A stretch of 64,000 nucleotides of DNA, taken from contig JAQBRH010000004.1 in the NCBI GenBank assembly GCA_028286565.1, positions 122,168 through 186,167 on the forward strand, read 5' to 3'. The translations under genes were made by a program, and so were the position numbers. Numbering within the stretch: position 1 is the stretch's first letter; the number at the start of each line of letters is the position of its first letter. Below are positions 13,632 through 22,023 of this stretch, piece after piece. Below the pieces are notes generated by a model. The model had not been told where the DNA came from and did no database searches. It was given only the letters and a program-made list of their open reading frames with translations. This DNA is from Parcubacteria group bacterium. GTDB taxonomy: Bacteria > Patescibacteriota > Minisyncoccia > Phycocordibacterales > Zambryskibacteraceae.

Positions 13632-13970
13632 TTATTTCTTATCTGCGGACCCCTTGGCGGCCTTAGCGGCGGAGACTTCTGCCTCCTTTTTCTTGATCTC
13701 GAGGTCCTTTTGCATCTTTCCTCCGTGCTTGGTGAACTTCCTGGTGAGGGAGAACTCTCCGAGTCTGTGGCCGACCATGTCTTCGCTCACGAAGACCTCG
13801 ATATGGTCCTTGCCGTTGTGGACGCCGAAAGTAAACCCGACCATCTCAGGAGCGATCTGCGAGGCTCGGGCCCAGGTCTTGATAACACCGGTTGTACCGG
13901 GTTTCTTGCCCTCTATCTTTTTAAGGACGCGAGGGTCGACATATGGGCCTTTTTTGCTTGATCGTGTCAT
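13632..13970 (-). CDS. rpsS: 30S ribosomal protein S19 with a lysine-rich C-terminal tail
   Basis: Core [14 protein letters not shown]...[35 protein letters not shown] matches S19, with an extra ~25-aa K/A-rich tail. Confidence 0.95.
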
Positions 13971-14008
13971 GAGAAATAAAGAAAGCTCGCACGAGCTTCG
14001 GGAAATAT

Positions 14009-14035
14009 AGTATAGAAATCAGGCTTTAATGTCAA
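14009..14035 (-). promoter_or_regulatory. Strong consensus promoter for rpsS: -35 TTGACA, 15-nt spacer, -10 TATACT, followed by a 5'-UTR hairpin (13993-14008)
   Basis: Minus-strand read TTGACA-ttaaagcctgatttc-TATACT...cccgaagctcgtgcgagctttc...ATG. It shows that rpsS heads its own transcription unit after the S10-cluster split. Confidence 0.5.
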
Positions 14036-14036
14036 A

Positions 14037-15473
14037 TTGGGCCTCTCTGCATGCTATGATATCCGCATGGATTCGGACCGCATGAGGTTAAAAGCTCTCG
14101 AAAGGGAAAAACTCGAGAAGGAAAAGGCTATCCATCCTGAGTTTTTCCCCGAGCAGGCCTGGGTGGACGATAAAGAACTCCTCGAAACCTTGGGTATTCA
14201 TATACCGAACAAGGAGAACCTCCCAAGTGCTTATCTCAAGCTCCTTCCGAGTGACTTCATAGTGGAAGAAGAAACCCAGACCGGGTACCAAACTGACACC
14301 CTCCCTGAACGTACTGCCCTAACAGGAGAAGATGGAGGCACTGTGTATGCGACGCTCGTCAAATGCGGGCTTTCGACCATTGAAGCGGTGGATGAGCTGG
14401 CTAAGCTTTTGAACACAACCAAAGACAAGATCCAGTACGCCGGCATCAAAGACAAGGACGCCGTCACCTCTCAAGAAATTTCTTTTAGAGGCTCTTCGCT
14501 TGAAGCGATAAAGAATATGCGCTCTCCCCATTTCTTCCTCAAGGATGTACGCCCGGGCAAGGGCATCGTGATGCGAGGAGGACTTAACGCAAATAGATTT
14601 ACTATCCTCCTGCGAATAGGAGAAGACATGGAAGATAAGGCTAAGATGAAAAATGCCCTCGAAGCTCTTGAGAGGGTAAAGAATGAAGGGTTTTATAATT
14701 ATTTTTATCTTCAAAGGTTCGGTTCTCCGCGTCTCAATAACTACAAATGGGGGCTTTCTATACTTAAGGGTGACTACGAAAAGGCTGTTCGAGGGCTTAT
14801 CTCGGATCCGGGACTTCGAGAGATACCGTTTTTCTTGAAACAAAGAGAGGAGATCATCGCTCTGGCTCCCGATTGGGCCAAGGTGCTCGCCCGACTGAAT
14901 GAATTCCCTCTCGTCTTCCCTAGCGAGATCAGGGTAGTAGGGCATCTCGTGCAAAAACCGACCGATTTTCTTGGAGCTCTGATGAAGATCGAGGAGCAAG
15001 TTGTACTCTGGGTAAGCGCGGTCGCGTCTCTCATGTATAACCGCAAAGTGAGCGCATACCTCATGGCAGGAATGGAACCCCCCCGCACGCTCCCCCTCTT
15101 CCTCAGTCCGGACAAGAACGATTGGCTGCCCTATATGGAAGATATGGAAAATGTGGGGATCTTCCCTCCTAACTTCAATACTCTTCGGTCATTCCAGCGA
15201 ATATCCATTATGCATAAAGAGATAGAAACCAAGGACAAACCGAAGATCCATGCGGCAGAGGTCATCGCCGAAGGGATCGTGGTCAATTTTTCTCTTGGAA
15301 AAGGAGAATACGCGACCACTTTCCTCTCTCATTTCGTAAATTTATTGAACGGCTGGCCTCCGAAAGAAATGAATGGCGAGATCATCGACCTCAAAAAGCA
15401 TTTGGGCCAAGAACCTCTTGAAAAGACTCTCAAGTATTTCGAGACTGTAAATCTATCCAAGAAAAACGAGTAA
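14037..15473 (+). CDS. truD: tRNA pseudouridine synthase, TruD/Pus7 family
   Basis: Family motifs PSDFIVEE (PEDFxVxE), YAGIKDKDAVTSQ (GxKD catalytic-Asp loop) and NYFYLQRFG (NYFGxQRFG). The likely true start is MDSDRMRL at 14067, 6 nt after a TATGAT -10, i.e. leaderless. Confidence 0.75.
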   Translation: MGLSACYDIRMDSDRMRLKALEREKLEKEKAIHPEFFPEQAWVDDKELLETLGIHIPNKENLPSAYLKLLPSDFIVEEETQTGYQTDTLPERTALTGEDGGTVYATLVKCGLSTIEAVDELAKLLNTTKDKIQYAGIKDKDAVTSQEISFRGSSLEAIKNMRSPHFFLKDVRPGKGIVMRGGLNANRFTILLRIGEDMEDKAKMKNALEALERVKNEGFYNYFYLQRFGSPRLNNYKWGLSILKGDYEKAVRGLISDPGLREIPFFLKQREEIIALAPDWAKVLARLNEFPLVFPSEIRVVGHLVQKPTDFLGALMKIEEQVVLWVSAVASLMYNRKVSAYLMAGMEPPRTLPLFLSPDKNDWLPYMEDMENVGIFPPNFNTLRSFQRISIMHKEIETKDKPKIHAAEVIAEGIVVNFSLGKGEYATTFLSHFVNLLNGWPPKEMNGEIIDLKKHLGQEPLEKTLKYFETVNLSKKNE

Positions 15474-15480
15474 AAGAAGA

Positions 15481-15509
15481 GGCCGAACCCGTAGGTTCGG
15501 CCTTTGTCC
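15481..15509. terminator. Bidirectional terminator ggccgaacc-cgta-ggttcggcc between convergent truD and the 188-aa gene
   Basis: Perfect 9-bp stem with U-rich flanks on both strands. Confidence 0.7.
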
Positions 15510-15528
15510 ATTGAAGGACCCTTCTCAC

Positions 15529-16095
15529 TTACTGAACTGCCGCCGCGTGACGACTGTCCATCTCGGCGTCAGCCGGCCGGTCGATGCGCTCGATCCCGGC
15601 GGGAACTCGCTTCTCGTTCGTGAAGAAGAACTTCACGAGGACAAGCTTGATCTCGTCGAGCCGGACACCGTCGGTAACCGGGCCTTCGAAGCCGGCAGGG
15701 ACGATGCCGAGTACGTCATCGCGAACGGTGACGTTCTGCTTCGGCGAGCCCTGTTGGACACCGACGAAGTTGATCGTCAGCACGCCGTTCGGATTCAGCC
15801 AGATGTGGCAGAACCAGGGCGTCGATGCGAGGTCGCGAAGCGCTTCGGTCGTCGCACGGCTGAGCTCCGCGATCGGAGTGCCAGCCGGCGAGTACGCGAG
15901 TGTGACAACGAACTTGGTAGTGGCGCCTTCCTTCTGCTGCTTGTGCATCTGAGCGCGATCGAGGCCAAAGCCTGCGTTCGTGAGTGCTCGACGGACGAGC
16001 TCTGCGCTCACCATCTTCTCGTTGTTGTAGATCTGCACACCGGTGTCGACGCGTCCATCGCGGATACGTCCGACTGCTGCGAGATTCTCGGTCAT
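15529..16095 (-). CDS. Hypothetical protein (188 aa); visibly GC-richer than its neighbours
   Basis: Long ORF bounded by terminators on both sides, with no recognisable catalytic motif. The segment GVLTINFVG is weakly reminiscent of small heat-shock protein beta-strands; this is not established. Confidence 0.5.
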   Translation of the reverse strand: MTENLAAVGRIRDGRVDTGVQIYNNEKMVSAELVRRALTNAGFGLDRAQMHKQQKEGATTKFVVTLAYSPAGTPIAELSRATTEALRDLASTPWFCHIWLNPNGVLTINFVGVQQGSPKQNVTVRDDVLGIVPAGFEGPVTDGVRLDEIKLVLVKFFFTNEKRVPAGIERIDRPADAEMDSRHAAAVQ

Positions 16096-16214
16096 GCGAC
16101 TTCCTCCGGGCTTCTGCCCTAGTGGTAAGTGAGGAGTGAATGTACATCAGGTACCTGCCTGATTTGTTAATCATATCATATTCAATACCCAATGTCAAGA
16201 ACAACTAAGGCGCA

Positions 16215-16241
16215 GAAAAGGGCCCAACTGGGCCCTTTTCC
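16215..16241. terminator. Bidirectional terminator gggccc-aact-gggccc
   Basis: Perfect 6-bp GC stem flanked by aaaag and ttttcc. Confidence 0.65.
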
Positions 16242-16273
16242 GGCTATTTCGGTATTATCTAGCGTATACCGAG

Positions 16274-16963
16274 TTAGCGCTTGTCGCTCATTTCGCCGCG
16301 AACGCGTTCGATGAAGCGTCCTGCCGCTTCCTGTCCGCCGAGGCCGAAGGAGAGGCCAAGGGCAAGAGAGATAGCGATCACGATGCCTGTGAAGAGAGTT
16401 TGCGAGAATGCCGCTGCGATACCAAGCTGTGAAAGAGCGACGAGGATGGTGAAGATCCAGATTGCCCACTTGGCGATCGTGCCTGCGAAGTGCGCTGAGG
16501 TGATCTGAGCGCTCTTTGCTGCGGTGACGACCACTCGGTCGACCACATCCCCTACCACGCCTCCGACGAGGAGGATGAGGGCTGCGACGATAACACGAGG
16601 GAGGTACGCAATGACAACGTCCTGGAGGAATACGTTGACCTGGTTAAGGCCGAGGACGTTGAAGGCTGCGATAAGGAACACGAGGATCACGAACCACTTG
16701 ACGAGACCGCCGATGAAGGCGCCTGAGTCGAGGTTCATGCCGCTTCGTCGAAGGAATGTTTCAAATCCTGCTCGGCGAAGCGCTTCGTCAACACGGAGAG
16801 ATCGGAACACCTGCCAGATCGCTCGGCCAAAGAGTGCGCCGATGAGCCATCCCAAGATGAGGATGATGATCGCGATAATAAGGTTTGGAACAAAGCTGAC
16901 GATCCCTAACCAAAGATTTTGGAAGGAAAGAGTCAATACTTGTCCCCATGTAGTCATAATCAT
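16274..16963 (-). CDS. Membrane protein with internally repeated conserved-TM-helix modules (MscS N-terminal-like)
   Basis: 229 aa, 5-6 TM segments and two similar halves (LWLGIVSFVPNLIIAIIILILGW... and AKWAIWIFTILVALSQLGIAAAF...). Assigned on pattern only. Confidence 0.6.
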   Translation of the reverse strand: MIMTTWGQVLTLSFQNLWLGIVSFVPNLIIAIIILILGWLIGALFGRAIWQVFRSLRVDEALRRAGFETFLRRSGMNLDSGAFIGGLVKWFVILVFLIAAFNVLGLNQVNVFLQDVVIAYLPRVIVAALILLVGGVVGDVVDRVVVTAAKSAQITSAHFAGTIAKWAIWIFTILVALSQLGIAAAFSQTLFTGIVIAISLALGLSFGLGGQEAAGRFIERVRGEMSDKR

Positions 16964-17079
16964 ATATTCTGGACTGTAGACCGTTACTTATTAATTACCA
17001 CCCGATGTGGTTATGCCCTATTATACACCTCTATTTCTGATTTAAATCAACTCTTGGCCCGACTGTGGATAGGAATCGC

Positions 17080-17640
17080 CTAGAGCCCGAGTTTGTTGTG
17101 GATCTTCTTGTGGTTAAAATCGAGAATATCGCGGACAAGCTTGTCGTAGAGGCCCAAGCGATAGTGGAAATCGGCGGTCTCAAAAGCCGCATAGCGGATC
17201 TCTCGGCCAAGTTCGGCTTCGATCGACTCTATGGCGTGGATAAGGATCCCCTTCTTCAAATGGTCGCCGACAACAAGGAGGTCGACCCGAGCTTCGGGGT
17301 CATGAAGGAATACGCCGGAGATGAGCACGAGCTTGAGGGCGCCGCCGCGGGCCAGCTTTTTTATGAGCTCCTTTTCGGTGATCGGGGTCGCATCGACGAG
17401 GAAATGCTCGAGGGGCTTTAGGTATCTGTATACGGTGTTCAAGGTGTAGCCCTTGGCCCTCTTCCTGATGAGGCCGGAGCGGTGGAGATTTCTGATCTCT
17501 CGGGCGACGAGCGGGCGTCGTTCTTGGGTTCGTTCGGCGACGGTCCCGGCATCATAGACGGAGCCCGGATTAAAGACAAAGAGGCGCATGATCTTTACTT
17601 TAGCCTCTCCGCCGAATATCTGAGCAACCGATTTGGTCAT
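17080..17640 (-). CDS. Hypothetical protein with an N-terminal winged-helix DNA-binding-like domain
   Basis: N-terminal KVKIMRLFVFNPGSVYDAGTVAERTQERRPLVAREIRNLHRSGLIRK resembles a wHTH. The C-terminal part (LVLISGVFLHDPEARVDLLVVGDH...) might be a degenerate nucleotidyltransferase-like fold; this is uncertain. Confidence 0.55.
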   Translation of the reverse strand: MTKSVAQIFGGEAKVKIMRLFVFNPGSVYDAGTVAERTQERRPLVAREIRNLHRSGLIRKRAKGYTLNTVYRYLKPLEHFLVDATPITEKELIKKLARGGALKLVLISGVFLHDPEARVDLLVVGDHLKKGILIHAIESIEAELGREIRYAAFETADFHYRLGLYDKLVRDILDFNHKKIHNKLGL

Positions 17641-17724
17641 GGGGCCATTCTACACATATCCCCTGCGAGGCGCCAGGGCAATAAAAAGCTGGCATAAATT
17701 GCCAGCTACCCCTTCCGATTTGGT

Positions 17725-18177
17725 TCAGGTTCCAAATATAGCGTTGACTAGTCTCCTGGCATCAGCATCTCGAGCAGCATCGGCATCTCGAGCGGCATGA
17801 GCAACCTGAGCTTGCCACCTTATGGCATCTTGAGCCCAGCCGCAAGGCACATACAAATGCTCAGGCTTGAAGTCATTGCAGAGTTTGGCTAGGTTATCGA
17901 CCTTCACCTTAACGAAATCGATCTGCTTTTGCTCCTGATCGAAAGTCATGACCCACAGTTCCTTGCGCACTTTGCCTTTGTTCTCGAGATGCATCCTGCG
18001 TGTGTCGAGCAGAACGTGTGCACTCTCGGTGGTCTGCACCAGTCCTCTACTACGTAACAACTCCCAGACTTCGCTTAGAAGACACCACCCCCAGTAGGCC
18101 ATCTTTCCCGCACGTTCGAATTCGTCTGAATTACCGTGGAGGTGATATGTCTGGGGTAACACCGGAAGAAGTTGCAC
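17725..18177 (-). CDS. Hypothetical protein (150 aa) with a short ARDADA tandem repeat at the C-terminus
   Basis: ORF with no motifs. A 21-nt near-perfect tandem duplication at about 17760-17805 encodes ARDADAARDADARR. Confidence 0.45.
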   Translation of the reverse strand: MQLLPVLPQTYHLHGNSDEFERAGKMAYWGWCLLSEVWELLRSRGLVQTTESAHVLLDTRRMHLENKGKVRKELWVMTFDQEQKQIDFVKVKVDNLAKLCNDFKPEHLYVPCGWAQDAIRWQAQVAHAARDADAARDADARRLVNAIFGT

Positions 18178-18277
18178 GATGGATCCTTCCTGCCTTGGGC
18201 AGGTGGCTTAAGGATAATGGGTGCACGGGGTGTGCAGTCCGAAAATTAAAATATCACAACATTATAGGTTAGTCAAC

Positions 18278-18355
18278 ACAAAACCCCGCCATGCGGGGTT
18301 TTGTCCCCTCTCCCTACCTAGGAGAGGGGAGACACGGCGTACGGGTGAGGTTATT
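18278..18355 (-). repeat. Copy A of a ~70-nt 3'-flank element: two tandem hairpins (ccccgc/gcgggg and ccctctcc/ggagaggg) plus U-tract, abutting a stop codon
   Basis: Near-identical to 21118-21186 (aaaa-cccc-gcgggg-ttttgtc-cctctcc...taggagagggg...ggtgaggttattt). Acts as a terminator for minus-strand transcription. Confidence 0.7.
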
Positions 18356-18419
18356 TGAGTGTTACTTTTCCACCAGCCGTCGTCGCAAGCTCCTCCTTAA
18401 GAACCCTCGGTTCTCAACG
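18351..18419 (-). pseudogene. Degenerate duplicated 3' end of rplL (encodes ...EPRVLKEELATTAGGKVTLK then stop)
   Basis: Hand translation of the minus strand gives GGKVTLK-stop, identical to the C-terminus of the intact rplL 150 nt away (..EEAGGKVTLK), preceded by a related LKEEL segment and an in-frame TGA upstream. Confidence 0.55.
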
Positions 18420-18502
18420 AAAAATGCCCATATGGGCATTTTTCTGCTTTCCTCCACGGGAGACCAGATGTTCTCCCGACCCCTCTCAAGCTGTCGTAAA
18501 AG

Positions 18503-18991
18503 TTACTTTAAAGTAACTTTTCCTCCAGCTTCTTCGATTCGCTTCTTCAATTCTGCGGCTTCTTCGTTCTTCATATCGGTCTTCAACATAGAAGGAGCTG
18601 CGTCGACGAGATCCTTGGCTTCCTTGAGGCCGAGTCCGAGGATTTCCTTGACCACCTTGATGACGGCGATCTTGTTCGCACCGCCGTCGGTGAGCTCAAC
18701 GTTCGCGGTCGACTTTGCGTCTTCTGCAGGACCCGCTGCGGCGGCCGGGCCGGCTGCGGCGACGGCGGTAGCCGAGACGCCGAACTTCTCTTCGAATACC
18801 TTGACGAGTTCGTTAAGGTCGAGGACAGACATCTCTTCGATCTCCTTTACGATCTTTGAGAACTTCGCAGGAACTGCGACTTCTTTCTCCGCCTTGGCTT
18901 CAGGCTTAACTTCCGCCTTAGCCTCTGCTTTGGCCTCGGGAGCGGGAGCGGCAGTTTCCTCCGCCGGTGCTGTGTTTGTAGTGTCGTCCAT
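18503..18991 (-). CDS. rplL: 50S ribosomal protein L7/L12
   Basis: Ala/Glu-rich hinge and C-terminal domain (GGANKIAVIKVVKEILGLGLKEAKDLVDAAPSMLK...EEAGGKVTLK). Confidence 0.93.
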   Translation of the reverse strand: MDDTTNTAPAEETAAPAPEAKAEAKAEVKPEAKAEKEVAVPAKFSKIVKEIEEMSVLDLNELVKVFEEKFGVSATAVAAAGPAAAAGPAEDAKSTANVELTDGGANKIAVIKVVKEILGLGLKEAKDLVDAAPSMLKTDMKNEEAAELKKRIEEAGGKVTLK

Positions 18992-19009
18992 TGTGGTAAT
19001 TTTAATTTA

Positions 19010-19498
19010 TTAAGACTTCTTCTCTGCTATCTGACCGAGCGCGATAGCGAAACGCTGTATCGGAGAATTGATGATGTTCACGAACATGCCTCGGAGCACC
19101 GGAGTGGTCGGGATCGTAGCGATCCCCTCCATCTCGGACTTCGACATGTATCTTCCTTCGAAAACTCCGCCGAGGATCTTCAATCCTTCAGGGAATTTCT
19201 TCTGGAATCCGTAGACTCCTCTCGCCGGAGCGATGAGGTCATCGGACCAGGCCATAGCGAGCTCGCCTGTGAGTTCGGGCTGAGCGCCTTCGAACTTTTC
19301 GGAATCGAGCACGCGCTTGGTCAAGGATTTCTTGGCCACCGAGTACGACACTCCCTCTGTTTTGAGGGTGCGGCGCATGGCGGAAGCCTGCGAAACCTTG
19401 AGGCCGTGGAAGTTGACGAAGACGAGGGACTTGGCGCTCTTTAGAGCATCCGCGAGCTTGTCTACAATTTCTCCTTTCTTGGCTTTGGATATTGCCAT
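19010..19498 (-). CDS. rplJ: 50S ribosomal protein L10
   Basis: 162-aa L10 (MAISKAKKGEIVDKLADALKSAKSLVFVNFHGLKVSQASAMRRTLK...) immediately upstream of rplL. Confidence 0.93.
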   Translation of the reverse strand: MAISKAKKGEIVDKLADALKSAKSLVFVNFHGLKVSQASAMRRTLKTEGVSYSVAKKSLTKRVLDSEKFEGAQPELTGELAMAWSDDLIAPARGVYGFQKKFPEGLKILGGVFEGRYMSKSEMEGIATIPTTPVLRGMFVNIINSPIQRFAIALGQIAEKKS

Positions 19499-19664
19499 GC
19501 TGTTAATGGTTAACGAACAAAAAAAGACCCATATAAGGCCTCGACATCCACATATGAAATGGGAGTGAGAGAGATCTCGGAAGGAGCTTAGTACCCTTGC
19601 GGGCTGCCTTCTGTCTTCGACCTTACGGGGATTACTTTATAGGAAAACGGAGAAAAGTCAAATA
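19499..19664 (-). promoter_or_regulatory. Long 5' leader of rplJ (candidate L10 autoregulatory leader) with upstream -35 TTGACT / -10 TAAAGT
   Basis: About 150-nt untranslated region between a terminator (19665-19690) and the rplJ start. L10 operons classically carry a structured leader bound by L10-(L12)n. The structure here was not verified. Confidence 0.35.
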
Positions 19665-19690
19665 AAAAAATCCTGACCGTAGTCAGGAAA
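19665..19690 (-). terminator. Terminator cctgac-cgta-gtcagg plus T7 run (minus orientation)
   Basis: Minus-strand read tttcctgactacggtcaggattttttt; it overlaps the stop of the 91-aa ORF at 19683. Confidence 0.6.
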
Positions 19691-19958
19691 CTTGGGATAC
19701 AACTCTCAGGCCCAGTCGCGCCGCATGGAAGCGCCGATAGGAAGAAATGTTCGGGATAGTCTCCGTAAGCTCTCGGAGCTTTTTGTGAAGCTCATCCGGA
19801 TTGTAGCGGATAAAAGCTCTCCGACTACCGCCTCTTCTTTCTACGCACCAGAGGCAGAAGTCGAGATACAGCCATTCCGCAAGACCGAAGATCGCAAGGG
19901 CAAAGAATACATAAGACGCAGCCAATGGGCGCATACGCTCCTCTCTGAGAAAGGACAT
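19683..19958 (-). CDS. Possible small membrane protein (91 aa)
   Basis: ORF ending in the terminator above, with a hydrophobic segment YVFFALAIFGLAEWLYLDFCLWCV. A competing plus-strand ORF overlaps it, so the call is low confidence. Confidence 0.3.
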   Translation of the reverse strand: MSFLREERMRPLAASYVFFALAIFGLAEWLYLDFCLWCVERRGGSRRAFIRYNPDELHKKLRELTETIPNISSYRRFHAARLGLRVVSQVS

Positions 19959-20014
19959 GGGTCTAAAGCCAGACTATCTTAATTAAAATAAAAAGCAAAT
20001 AAAAAAGCACGAAA

Positions 20015-20290
20015 TTATTCGCGCTGAGCGGGAACGTAATGTTCGACGGTGCAGGCAGAAACACTCTCGATCGCAAGGGGGTTTTTCGCCCGCAGCGTAT
20101 TGCATCGCTTGAGCAGAAGTTCTGCACGCTGCTGAATGAAGACTGTGGGCGCGTCCGTCTGAGCGAGGACGAGCAAGTGGCCAATGTCAGAGATGATCTT
20201 GCGCCGAAGCTTGAGTCTCTCAGGATCAGCTCTGTTAGCCTGAGCATCCTCTTCTGCGGTGGGCATTTCGTCGATATCGGGACCGGGCAT
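20015..20290 (-). CDS. Hypothetical small protein (91 aa, acidic N-terminus)
   Basis: GAGGA RBS 6 nt upstream of the ATG and a perfect TTGACA -35 further upstream. A competing plus-strand ORF (20039-20332) cannot be excluded. Confidence 0.35.
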   Translation of the reverse strand: MPGPDIDEMPTAEEDAQANRADPERLKLRRKIISDIGHLLVLAQTDAPTVFIQQRAELLLKRCNTLRAKNPLAIESVSACTVEHYVPAQRE

Positions 20291-20398
20291 TGTGTCCTCA
20301 CTGGTAAAAGAGCGTGTACCTTACTCCTTTAAGAAATATCATTTCAACCAACTAATGTCAATCAAAAAACTCGGGGATTTTTGAATTTTAAACGTGTA

Positions 20399-20737
20399 TT
20401 ACTTCGGTTCAACAATTACCGCTGTGCCGTAGGCGAGGACTTCGGTGACGCCCTGCATCAGCTCTGTGGTGTCGTATTTGAACCCTATGACGGCGTTTGC
20501 GCCCATTTCTGCAGCATGGGTGAGCATCAGGTCAAAAGCATCTTCTCTGGTCTTCTCGCAGAGTTCGGTCAGGATCGTGATGTTCCCTCCGATGAGAGTC
20601 TGGAGCCCCGCTCCGATCGATCCGACGATCGAACGCGAACGCACAATGATGCCTCGAGAAATACCGATATTCTTTACTACCTTATACGCATCGAGCTCGA
20701 ACGCTGTGGTCACCATGTTGTGGGGTATTGTTGTCAT
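20399..20737 (-). CDS. YbjQ/UPF0145 family protein
   Basis: ~110-aa protein with the typical Gly-rich repeated pattern (GIIVRSRSIVGSIGAGLQTLIGGNITILTE...GANAVIGFKYD...GTAVIVEP). Confidence 0.8.
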   Translation of the reverse strand: MTTIPHNMVTTAFELDAYKVVKNIGISRGIIVRSRSIVGSIGAGLQTLIGGNITILTELCEKTREDAFDLMLTHAAEMGANAVIGFKYDTTELMQGVTEVLAYGTAVIVEPK

Positions 20738-20809
20738 AAACCTATTTTAACACAAGCAAAAATCAATTTTTACGTGAGATATCCCAGGAGAGAAGGGATA
20801 AATTAAACC

Positions 20810-21103
20810 TCAGGAAGTCCAAATGGAACTGATAATCCAAACTGAACCGAGGATCAGGATGACCGCAGAGACTCCAAACAAAGTAATAAATCTTCCCTCT
20901 TGTTGTTTTCTGACTTCACTCACCAGTCCCACAATCAGTCCAAGAATTGCAACAATAGCTACGATTATCGCAGCACCGTAAATGCCAAAAGCGACTCCGA
21001 AGCCTTCCGCACCGCTAGCTGTATTGCTTTCGTATATCCAAAAGAATAAATGCACAACTACCACAGCTATAAGTGAAAGAAACACCTTGGTAATTATTTT
21101 CAT
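20810..21103 (-). CDS. Small membrane protein (97 aa, 3 TM)
   Basis: Start taken at the internal ATG (MKIITKVFLSLIAVVVVHLFF...). The track ORF runs upstream into rplB and is not credible. The ATG lies 6 nt after a TATACT (leaderless pattern). Confidence 0.55.
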   Translation of the reverse strand: MKIITKVFLSLIAVVVVHLFFWIYESNTASGAEGFGVAFGIYGAAIIVAIVAILGLIVGLVSEVRKQQEGRFITLFGVSAVILILGSVWIISSIWTS

Positions 21104-21117
21104 ATATACAGTATATA

Positions 21118-21186
21118 CACAAAATCCCCTTGCGGGGACTTTTGTCTCCCTCTCCTTTCGTCTAGGAGAGGGGTGGGGTGAGGTTA
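21118..21186 (-). repeat. Copy B of the ~70-nt tandem-hairpin 3'-flank element, immediately after the rplB stop codon
   Basis: The alignment to 18278-18355 is near-identical across both hairpins and through the stop codon (ggtgaggTTAttt). Confidence 0.7.
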
Positions 21187-22023
21187 TTTCTTTCCGACCT
21201 TTCGTCTTCGGACGATGAATTTGTTCGAGTATTTCTTTGCTCGGCGGGATTTCTGGCCCTTTCCGGTCGGCTTGCCGTAGATAGAGATCGCTCGGCGTCG
21301 TCCTCGACCCTGGCGGCCTTCTCCTCCTCCGTGCGGGTGGTCGACGGGGTTCATGGCCGTACCGCGGACGGTAGGGCGAATGCCAAGCCATCGTGAGCGT
21401 CCGGCCTTCCCGAGGTTTGTGAGGCGGTTCTCATCGTTCGAGACCTCGCCGATGGTTGCCCAGGCGTTCTCAGGGACCTTCCTCACTTCGCTCGAAGGCA
21501 TCTTGATGTCCACGTAGCCTCCGTCCTTGGCCGAGACCTCGACATAGTTCCCTCCTGATCGAGCTACTCGCGCGCCTCCTTGAGACTTGAGCTCGACGTT
21601 GTAGATAAATGTTCCGACGGGGATGTTTTTGAGGGGAAGCTTGTTGCCGGGAACGAGCGGAGCATTATCTGAAGCGATGAAAGTATCTCCGACCTTCACA
21701 TTCTTCGGGAGAAGGGCGTATCGCCTCTCTCCGTCCTTGTAGGCCACGAGTCCGATGAATCCCGAGCGGTTCGGATCGTATTCAACGGTCTTCACGGTGA
21801 AGGGGACGTTCGGCTTGTTGTATGTAAAATCAATGTCTCGGAACAATCTTTTGTGCCCGCCACCCTTGTGTCGAGTAGTGATGCGCCCGGTGTTGTTGCG
21901 TCCGTTCGCTCGGCGAAAACCGGTGGTAAGGGACTTCAAAGGCTCGCTCTTCGTCAAGAACTTCTTGAATTCGACGTGAGTCGTTTGTCGGTTCGATTTG
22001 GTTGTGGGTTTGTATCGTTTCAT
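21184..22023 (-). CDS. rplB: 50S ribosomal protein L2
   Basis: 279-aa L2 (..GRNNTGRITTRHKGGGHKRLFR..., C-terminal GGGEGRQGRGRR...). Confidence 0.97.
   Translation of the reverse strand: MKRYKPTTKSNRQTTHVEFKKFLTKSEPLKSLTTGFRRANGRNNTGRITTRHKGGGHKRLFRDIDFTYNKPNVPFTVKTVEYDPNRSGFIGLVAYKDGERRYALLPKNVKVGDTFIASDNAPLVPGNKLPLKNIPVGTFIYNVELKSQGGARVARSGGNYVEVSAKDGGYVDIKMPSSEVRKVPENAWATIGEVSNDENRLTNLGKAGRSRWLGIRPTVRGTAMNPVDHPHGGGEGRQGRGRRRAISIYGKPTGKGQKSRRAKKYSNKFIVRRRKVGKK

Follow-up and report, generated by a model that had tools for sequence, protein, structure and literature searches.

In a Parcubacteria genome, the gene rplL, which encodes ribosomal protein L7/L12, is followed by a dead fragment of a second rplL 3′ end. 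This fragment, called the relic here, lies on the minus strand of a stretch of 64,000 nucleotides (nt) from contig JAQBRH010000004.1 (assembly GCA_028286565.1, positions 122,168 to 186,167), which was analyzed as a whole and is referred to as the window. The relic comprises the last eight codons of rplL with their stop codon and the beginning of the 3′ flank. It is probably an rplL end left behind when two diverged alleles of the locus were joined by a recombination event with one homologous and one illegitimate side.

The homology resides in a short sequence. On the minus strand, 18351–18446 translates to QKNAHMGIFR-stop-EPRVLKEELATTAGGKVTLK-stop; an in-frame TGA at 18414–18416, 20 codons upstream, is followed by E-P-R-V-L-K-E-E-L-A-T-T-A-G-G-K-V-T-L-K-stop, in agreement with the translation of 18351–18419 given in the initial annotation. 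That annotation also counted seven terminal residues identical to those of rplL and encoded by different synonymous codons. The codons are as described, and the count is eight, AGGKVTLK, plus the stop codon; the intact protein ends in ...ELKKRIEEAGGKVTLK-stop. Relic (GCTGGTGGAAAAGTAACACTCAAATAA) and true end (GCTGGAGGAAAAGTTACTTTAAAGTAA) align without a gap at 21 of 27 nt. A repeat search recovered the pair as 18350–18377 and 18502–18529 (79% identical, spacing 152), and the 64 kb contain the back-translated pattern GCNGGNGGNAARGTNACNYTNAAR in just two places, the true end and the relic (0.00 occurrences in 100 shuffles). AGGKVTLK is the sole rplL 8-mer, low-complexity ones aside, found elsewhere in the six-frame translation of the window, and it is the C terminus of 96 of the 120 closest rplL proteins.

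A comparison from outside the window gives the same picture. The closest relative, at locus L132 (GCA_040384245.1), is ~85% identical in DNA and 92% identical in the protein of ORF186, an open reading frame (ORF) farther downstream. Its rplL ends in ...GCAGGAGGAAAGGTTACACTCAAGTAA, then CACTCACGTTTCGAATAA, then the terminator ACAAAAAATCCCCGATGGGGATTTTTT. This end matches the relic at 28/34 positions and the true end at 28/36, with E = 1.4e-4 for each, and the match to the relic extends past the stop codon into the first 3′-flank bases (TAAC-CTCAC). The relic is therefore as good an rplL-end homolog as the live one, and the pseudogene remnant proposed in the initial annotation is borne out by formal homology both within the window and against L132.

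The remnant is shorter than first proposed. It was placed about 150 nt downstream of the intact gene, which agrees with the spacing of 152, and its extent as far as 18419, with an upstream echo of ELKKRIEE, is not confirmed. Against shuffles and random windows, comparison of EPRVLKEELATT with the rplL C-terminal region gave P = 0.19–0.78 at the protein level, and the 45 nt upstream of the relic gave P = 0.14 at the DNA level. Since the upstream similarity does not exceed chance, only the segment from 18345 or 18351 to 18377, some 27–34 nt, is demonstrably derived from rplL.

The way in which the two ends differ is informative about their past. By codon position, the six differences are at 3, 3, 3, 1, 3, and 3; all are synonymous, with no amino-acid change, indel, or frameshift. 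For six random substitutions, an all-synonymous outcome has P ~1e-4. The two ends differ at four of six four-fold degenerate sites, no less than orthologs of the window and L132, which differ at 0.32–0.60 of such sites. In a Jukes–Cantor simulation that took the six differences and the same translation as its data, the best likelihood was 0.27 where both copies were constrained until recently and 2e-4 where the relic was neutral after an in situ duplication, a ratio of ~1300 for constrained copies. Synonymous-only divergence at the species level therefore favors the joining of two diverged alleles over a simple local duplication. The initial annotation had spoken of a past duplication or recombination breakpoint, and this idea is supported, with the synonymous-only differences pointing to the joining of alleles.

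Each of twelve syntenic loci of relatives (L001–L004 and L132–L139) has just one rplL end. A motif scan of eight sequences (the window, L001–L004, L132, L134, and L135) found a second rplL end in the window only, and L136, L138, and L139 each have one intact rplL end. In L136/L137, L138, and L139, a homolog of ORF150, the gene next downstream of the relic in the window, lies directly downstream of the intact rplL. The order in these relatives is rplL-TAA, 18 nt, a terminator ACAAAAGCCCCGAAAGGGGCTTTTGTGTTGACT (ACAAAA..TTTTGTGTTGACT), a promoter (TTGACT-17 nt-TATTAT), a leader CCTTAAGCCACCTGCC..GGCAGGAAGGAG that contains ..CATTTCCTTAAGCCACCTGCCnnnGGCAGGAAGGAG.., and the start codon of the ORF150 homolog. 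In the window, the relic, a terminator (T2), a promoter, a leader, and ORF150 align column for column with this arrangement. Because the same downstream block follows the relic and the intact rplL of the relatives, the relic sits where an rplL end belongs. The question raised in the initial annotation, whether an rplL sits at this position in relatives, is thus answered by intact genes that end there in L136, L137, L138, and L139.

The relic appears to have no present function, because no start codon (ATG, GTG, or TTG) occurs in frame after its TGA, because its frame differs from that of rplL (152-nt offset), and because it lies downstream of T1, the first terminator-like hairpin after the intact gene. 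Within the predicted fold of 18255–18540, the relic itself is unpaired or weakly paired. Homology beyond chance, a lack of any means of expression, and the position of an intact rplL end in relatives together mark it as a pseudogene fragment.

A repeat shared with the end of the ribosomal protein gene rplB begins at the relic. Local alignment of copy A (~18277–18356) with copy B (~21117–21189) scored 58, compared with 14.3 ± 2.2 in shuffles. The repeat begins with the identity AAATAACCTCACCC (18343–18356 and 21176–21189), and in copy A it starts at the last codon of the relic, so the remnant does sit where the repeat begins, as had been noted. By its sequence, the repeat is a G/C-rich motif of the BoxC/PIT/TM type, predicted to form an intrastrand triplex, plus a terminator. 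On the minus strand, the blocks read CCTCACCC, spacer, CCCCTCTCC, loop, and GGAGAGGG; on the plus strand, both copies read CCCTCTCC / GGAGAGGG / GGGTGAGG (pyrimidine, purine, purine). The loops are 6 nt and 11 nt in copy A, and ~6–9 nt (by block boundaries) and ~1–2 nt in copy B, set against 1–6 nt in the ITxF definition. The matches listed for the motif hairpin pattern (loci L005–L124) come from more than 120 genome contigs and from many phyla, among them Chloroflexota, Cyanobacteriota, Pseudomonadota, Ignavibacteriota, Saccharibacteria, and Parcubacteria, usually with the third block (CCTCACCCC/GGGGTGAGG) beside the hairpin. Other contigs of Patescibacteria and Saccharibacteria also have long-spacer variants. 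Of 43 cases across phyla, 32 have an A immediately before CCTCACCC, so part of the 14-nt identity may be a property of the motif, and 19 have a stop triplet within 6 nt.

There are two copies of the motif in the 64 kb, both intergenic and each exactly between the stop codon of a ribosomal protein gene and its terminator. No copy was found in the syntenic loci L001–L004 and L132–L139. At the rplB site, the TAA of L132 directly abuts a terminator that is 34/35 identical to that of the window, and the window has ~39 extra nt of motif in between. The motif beside the relic is a separate small insertion between stop codon and terminator. The terminators of the locus form a recurring family, with 24–34 of ~35 positions identical among members. 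Holder et al. 2015 (PMC4666352) described E. coli copies of the motif as CCCTCTCCC..GGGAGAGGG..GGGTGAGGG. In that work, the motif had no promoter or terminator activity, the triplex formed in vitro on single strands only with no in vivo evidence of a stable triplex, and motif-bearing loci were significantly more variable. Copies A and B share the three blocks and the intergenic setting with those motifs, and their presence or absence between close relatives fits the reported variability. They differ in their Patescibacteria host, in loops at or beyond the 1–6 nt range (the second of copy A, the first of copy B), and in their exact placement between a ribosomal-protein stop and a terminator; any triplex formed by them is a prediction. 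The motif may have helped to make the relic site fragile.

The recombination that probably produced the relic can be laid out as follows. The two rplL ends would have diverged while each still belonged to a working gene, in two related lineages, and an exchange would then have joined them, by homology within rplJ–rplL or within ORF186 and beyond, and illegitimately at or just upstream of 18377/18378. Through the event, a complete rplL 3′ end would have come to lie 152 nt upstream of the block formed by T2, promoter, leader, and ORF150, together with the stop-codon hairpin, second hairpin, T1, and 41-nt tail that belong to this upstream end. Two versions can be envisaged. In one, the resident last 27 nt were displaced by a donor patch with the 3′ part of rplL; in the other, a donor block that began at the relic and ran through ORF150, perhaps into ORF186, entered behind the resident terminator. 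In both, DNA would have been imported from another lineage through a one-sided illegitimate mechanism. The live allele of the relic end would have carried the hypothetical 31-mer ATCGAAGAAGCTGGTGGAAAAGTAACACTCAAATAA. [quoted passage not shown]

Hints as to which side is native point in both directions. The motif family shared with the resident rplB site hints at a native relic block, and the atypical codon usage of ORF150 together with the high divergence of ORF186 hints at import of the block from relic to ORF186. The two ends both have atypical codons (log-likelihoods −19.7 and −18.7), so that their codon usage is uninformative on this point, and the true end and the relic each differ from the L132 end at 5/27 positions. 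Divergence from L132 is uneven along the locus, with 49/82 four-fold sites differing in ORF186 versus 14/60 in the adjoining half of the MscS-like gene. This sharp change at the boundary of the two genes suggests a recombination mosaic. In terms of DNA identity to L132, ORF186 is at ~0.78–0.85 and the first half of the next gene at 0.93–0.97 (16242–17664 versus L132 9977–11397). A recombination breakpoint inside rplL was considered and rejected, as four-fold divergence from L132 is even across the thirds of rplL and rplJ.

Several points weigh against the joining of diverged alleles. No donor or pre-event allele was found, and a scan of 241 million metagenome records yielded no rplL end followed directly by CCTCACCC; KVTLK-stop with CCTCACCC within 8 nt gave seven matches in metagenome contigs, none of them rplL. 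The case for selection is built on only 27 nt and a simple substitution model, and with L132 as the outgroup only three changes fall on the relic branch (P ~0.02). Selection for the palindrome at the rplL stop codon may have given the true end synonymous changes and so inflated the divergence, and the unevenness along the locus could come from differing constraint and not from recombination. The terminators are all alike and cannot tell which unit is orthologous to that of L132, and microhomology at the junction is unreadable without the parental sequences.

The competing account nearest to hand, though unlikely, is a tandem duplication in place. Slippage or unequal crossing-over would have copied ~152 nt, from the last 27 nt of rplL through the terminator, after which the downstream coding end would have degenerated as a pseudogene and the noncoding parts would have gained hairpins and the triplex motif by insertion. 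The copies are indeed local, direct, and closely spaced (152 nt) in a hairpin-rich stretch, like known slippage and template-switch duplications at hairpin DNA. The two units also share an architecture (an rplL end, a spacer with a G/C-rich hairpin, an ACAAAA/AGAAAA stem-loop-TTTT terminator, and GTTGA..AACC), T1 and T2 are identical at 25/35 positions, and both ends have GCT and AAA where L132 has GCA and AAG. The shared architecture is weak evidence, given that terminators of this family resemble one another, including that of rplB, and outside the 27–34 nt the 152-nt units show no significant similarity (P = 0.23 in local alignment for the 125 nt that follow each stop codon). Moreover, differences that are all synonymous and free of frameshifts, at a synonymous divergence of between-species scale, misfit a duplicate that drifted neutrally, as the low maximum likelihood in the simulation also indicates. 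A further account must be regarded as doubtful. In it, triplex motifs would be actively spreading in this Patescibacteria lineage, with highly expressed genes (rplB, rplL) as targets and the space between stop codon and terminator as the precise insertion site, where non-B DNA would provoke template switching, giving both an inverted copy of the rplL end (the 24-nt palindrome) and the direct 27-nt copy; the relic would then be a triplex-induced footprint and not a sign of DNA import.

The remaining accounts are less probable still. Assembly could have joined co-occurring strains or species with different rplL downstream regions into one contig, and selection-diverged alleles side by side are the expected outcome of such a chimera in a genome of the uncultured Patescibacteria type whose relatives are all metagenome assemblies. 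A chimeric join is nevertheless very unlikely: it needs a shared k-mer, the sequence upstream of 18377 is unrelated to rplL, which leaves an overlap of at most a few bases, far below assembler k, and the flanks are collinear with relatives with synteny otherwise intact. Inserted DNA flanked by direct repeats of a gene's 3′ end is a classic signature of integration into gene ends, and the present direct repeat, in which the upstream copy keeps the gene intact, could be read as the work of a site-specific element that targeted the rplL 3′ end, supplied a replacement end, and was later mostly deleted. This is highly improbable with only 125 nt between the copies, with six differences in 27 positions (22% divergence) where fresh attachment-site cores are identical, and with an ORF150 that has no relative in viral contigs; Pfam detected no integrase, recombinase, or transposase domain among the ORFs scanned in 13.6–21.1 kb, and PHROGs gave nothing relevant. 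It is scarcely credible that the similarity is a coincidence, a structural RNA or DNA element, or a copy of the rplB end. Another frame of the relic does read RRRLVEK-stop, like the rplB C terminus RRRKVGKK-stop, the downstream repeat is common to the rplB end, and the region is strongly structured (z = −6.6). The rplB match needs an 8-nt gap to reach 15/21, whereas the rplL match is ungapped, covers all eight residues and the stop, continues into the L132 3′ flank, is absent from shuffles, and lies at the position of an intact rplL end in four relatives. A structural role also fits poorly with a relic that pairs weakly or not at all in the predicted fold.

Coordinates of the relic and of the features around it in the window (strand given as − for minus and. 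for none)
Feature	Position	Strand	Basis
Relic: last eight rplL codons and TAA (18351–18377) and first 6 nt of the 3′ flank	18345..18377	−	Homology to rplL ends; position equivalent to intact rplL end in L136, L138, L139
31-mer over relic/tail junction, GCTTGCGACGACGGCTGGTGGAAAAGTAACAC			
Intact rplL (L7/L12, 162 aa), ending AGGKVTLK-TAA	18503..18991	−	Pfam Ribosomal_L12 and Ribosomal_L12_N; full-length alignment with L132 rplL, ~87% nt
Inverted repeat spanning the rplL stop codon; core 18498–18521 a perfect 24-nt palindrome, AAAAGTTACTTTAAAGTAACTTTT	18488..18531	.	23-nt arms, 87% complementary; self-match 18498–18520 / 18521–18499; first hairpin of fold
Segment of ~39 nt missing in L132, with GGGAGA...TCTCCC hairpin (18458–18477)	18454..18492	−	Alignment gap in L132; fold
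T1, terminator-like hairpin (GAAAAATGCCCATATGGGCATTTTTC), first after intact rplL	18419..18444	−	26-nt palindrome; 27/37 identical to L132 rplL terminator; stem-loop in fold
41-nt tail between T1 and relic, with in-frame TGA (18414–18416) and AAGGAGG	18378..18418	−	No significant similarity found
Triplex-motif copy A (BoxC/PIT/TM type, predicted): CCTCACCC, 11-nt spacer, CTCCCCTCTCC-TAGGTA-GGGAGAGGGG	18305..18350	−	Three-block motif match
Terminator T2 (ACAAAA-CCCCGC-ATG-GCGGGG-TTTTGTG)	18277..18304	−	Orthologous to rplL terminator of L136, L138, L139 (alignment); 30/33 identical to window rplB terminator; fold
Promoter-like site TTGACT-17 nt-TATTTT before ORF150	18248..18276	−	Consensus scan; −35 box and 17-nt spacing same in L136
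Conserved ORF150 5′ leader; hairpin pairs UUCCUU with Shine-Dalgarno AAGGA(G)	18178..18240	−	Invariant CCTTAAGCCACCTGCC...GGCAGGAAGGA in four genomes
ORF150, small protein of a rare family	17725..18177	−	HMMER, BLASTP; atypical codon usage
Terminator T3 after ORF150, then conserved ORF186 promoter region (17641–17664)	17687..17707	−	Terminator scan; 24/24 identity to L132 just upstream of ORF186 start
Repeat copy B: rplB last codon and stop (21184–21189), triplex motif B (21148–21183), rplB terminator (21117–21145)	21117..21189	−	A–B alignment

The segment between the intact gene and ORF150 is rich in secondary structure. The fold of 18255–18540 is a row of hairpins with a minimum free energy of −119 kcal/mol: the stop-codon palindrome, GGGAGA/TCTCCC, T1, a small AGAACC/GGTTCT hairpin, the motif hairpin, and T2. 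Rfam gave no match at gathering score, the ORF150 leader included, and in 18100–18600 only sub-threshold ones. The palindrome uses the leucine codon TTA, which makes up 1% of leucine codons in native genes. As it covers the last codons and stop of rplL, the plus strand likewise reads KVTLK-stop. Shorter stop-codon hairpins (GTTACT..AGTAAC) are visible by eye in L001, L004, L135, and L136. The 41-nt tail has no significant similarity to rplL, to L132, or to the promoter/leader block of copy A and the relatives. That it is a collapsed copy of the ORF150 promoter and leader was suggested by eye (TTCTTAAGGAGGAG versus TTCCTTAAG..GGAAGGAG) and rejected, with P = 0.31–0.41 against copy A, L136, and L139. 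At its other end, the intact rplL has an N-terminal extension of ~40 residues, rich in Ala, Glu, Lys, and Pro (MDDTTNTAPAEETAAPAPEAKAEAKAEVKPEAKAEKEVAVPA), before the dimerization domain (18870–18991, minus strand). The extension is missing in many close rplL homologs (~78% query cover) and varies in length in others.

The leader of ORF150 is near-invariant in four genomes (CAUUUCCUUAAGCCACCUGCC-nnn-GGCAGGAAGGAG), and the ORF150 proteins are only ~32–36% identical. It lies at 18178–18240 (minus strand) in the window, 3940–4000 in L136, 110–175 in L139, and 2985–3048 in L138, and its small upstream hairpin shows three to four compensatory pairs. These features make it a candidate cis-regulatory RNA that would control translation of the gene always found right after rplL. 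The ORF150 family is rare, with seven matches (best E = 2e-13) in an HMMER search of 1.84 billion representatives and a BLASTP E = 9e-22 to protein P0241. ORF150 has no Pfam, PHROG, or viral-contig relatives, which led to rejection of a phage or mobile origin, and a word-indexed search gave no match. Its codon usage scores −0.13 per codon versus +0.38 to +0.69 for native genes. Residues ~36–149 match seven repeated stretches in a 3433-aa protein and in a 642-aa protein (P0244, P0245; a Pfam scan of P0245 showed no family at threshold), and ORF150 may correspond to a repeat unit of such giant proteins.

The window comes from a Parcubacteria/Patescibacteria genome, and its best rplL protein matches are from Zambryskibacteria, Parcubacteria, and Patescibacteria; exact-protein look-ups of its rplL, rplJ, and ORF186 found none on record. 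On the minus strand, the gene order is rpsJ–rplC–rplD–rplW–rplB, repeat B, ORF97, a ybjQ-like gene, ~900 nt, rplJ–rplL, relic, repeat A, ORF150, ORF186, the MscS-like gene, ORF188, truD (plus strand), and rpsS–rplV onward. Throughout the clade, rplJ–rplL and a number of further genes separate rplB from rpsS, as seen in L001, L132, L135, and L136 and in the covered part of L134 and L138. The S10 operon is split after rplB in this clade (window 13632–22023; same six loci), and the interval holds the ybjQ-like gene, rplJ–rplL, ORF186, the MscS-like gene, and several small lineage-specific genes, with truD on the opposite strand in some members. Small orphan ORFs differ from genome to genome in the slots rplB–ybjQ, ybjQ–rplJ, and rplL–ORF186. 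The slot from rplL to the next gene is ~90 nt in L001, holds an antisense small ORF in L132, and spans ~800 nt in L134; the rplL–ORF186 region is clearly a variable, mosaic slot. Relative to L132, the window has two more specific inserts, ORF97 (20810–21103) and ORF91 (19683–19958, in the stretch 19662–20399). Both have atypical codon usage (−0.14 and −0.40 per codon; GC content at third codon positions 0.39 and 0.55 versus 0.60–0.72 in native genes) and no homologs among the fetched relatives, and ORF97 looks like a small membrane protein.

The relic has counterparts in the orphan 3′ ends of Rhs, contact-dependent inhibition (CDI), and T6SS loci (PMC5361080; for the mechanism, PMC3240628). 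There too, a complete gene is followed by a promoter-less 3′ fragment of another or earlier allele, and the proposed cause is the same, an exchange in which homology anchors one side and the other is joined illegitimately. The tips at those loci encode different toxins along with immunity genes and are kept or reused, whereas the relic and the true end encode the same eight ribosomal-protein residues and the relic is only 27 nt long with no sign of reuse.

The relic is thus a small evolutionary scar, the displaced 3′ end of a gene at a probable recombination junction, of a known kind and new in this instance. For annotation, it serves as a warning that no second rplL or small ORF should be called at the site. 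The same terminator with and without a ~39-nt motif in two relatives that are ~85% identical is a clean case of motif presence and absence, and this pair could aid the study of how the widespread, unexplained BoxC/PIT/TM motifs arise. For the organism, the relic would be a dated footprint of how the slot between rplL and the next conserved gene was rebuilt by recombination in this Parcubacteria clade, and it suggests that a Patescibacteria genome acquired, next to an essential ribosomal gene, DNA from a lineage diverged at the species level.

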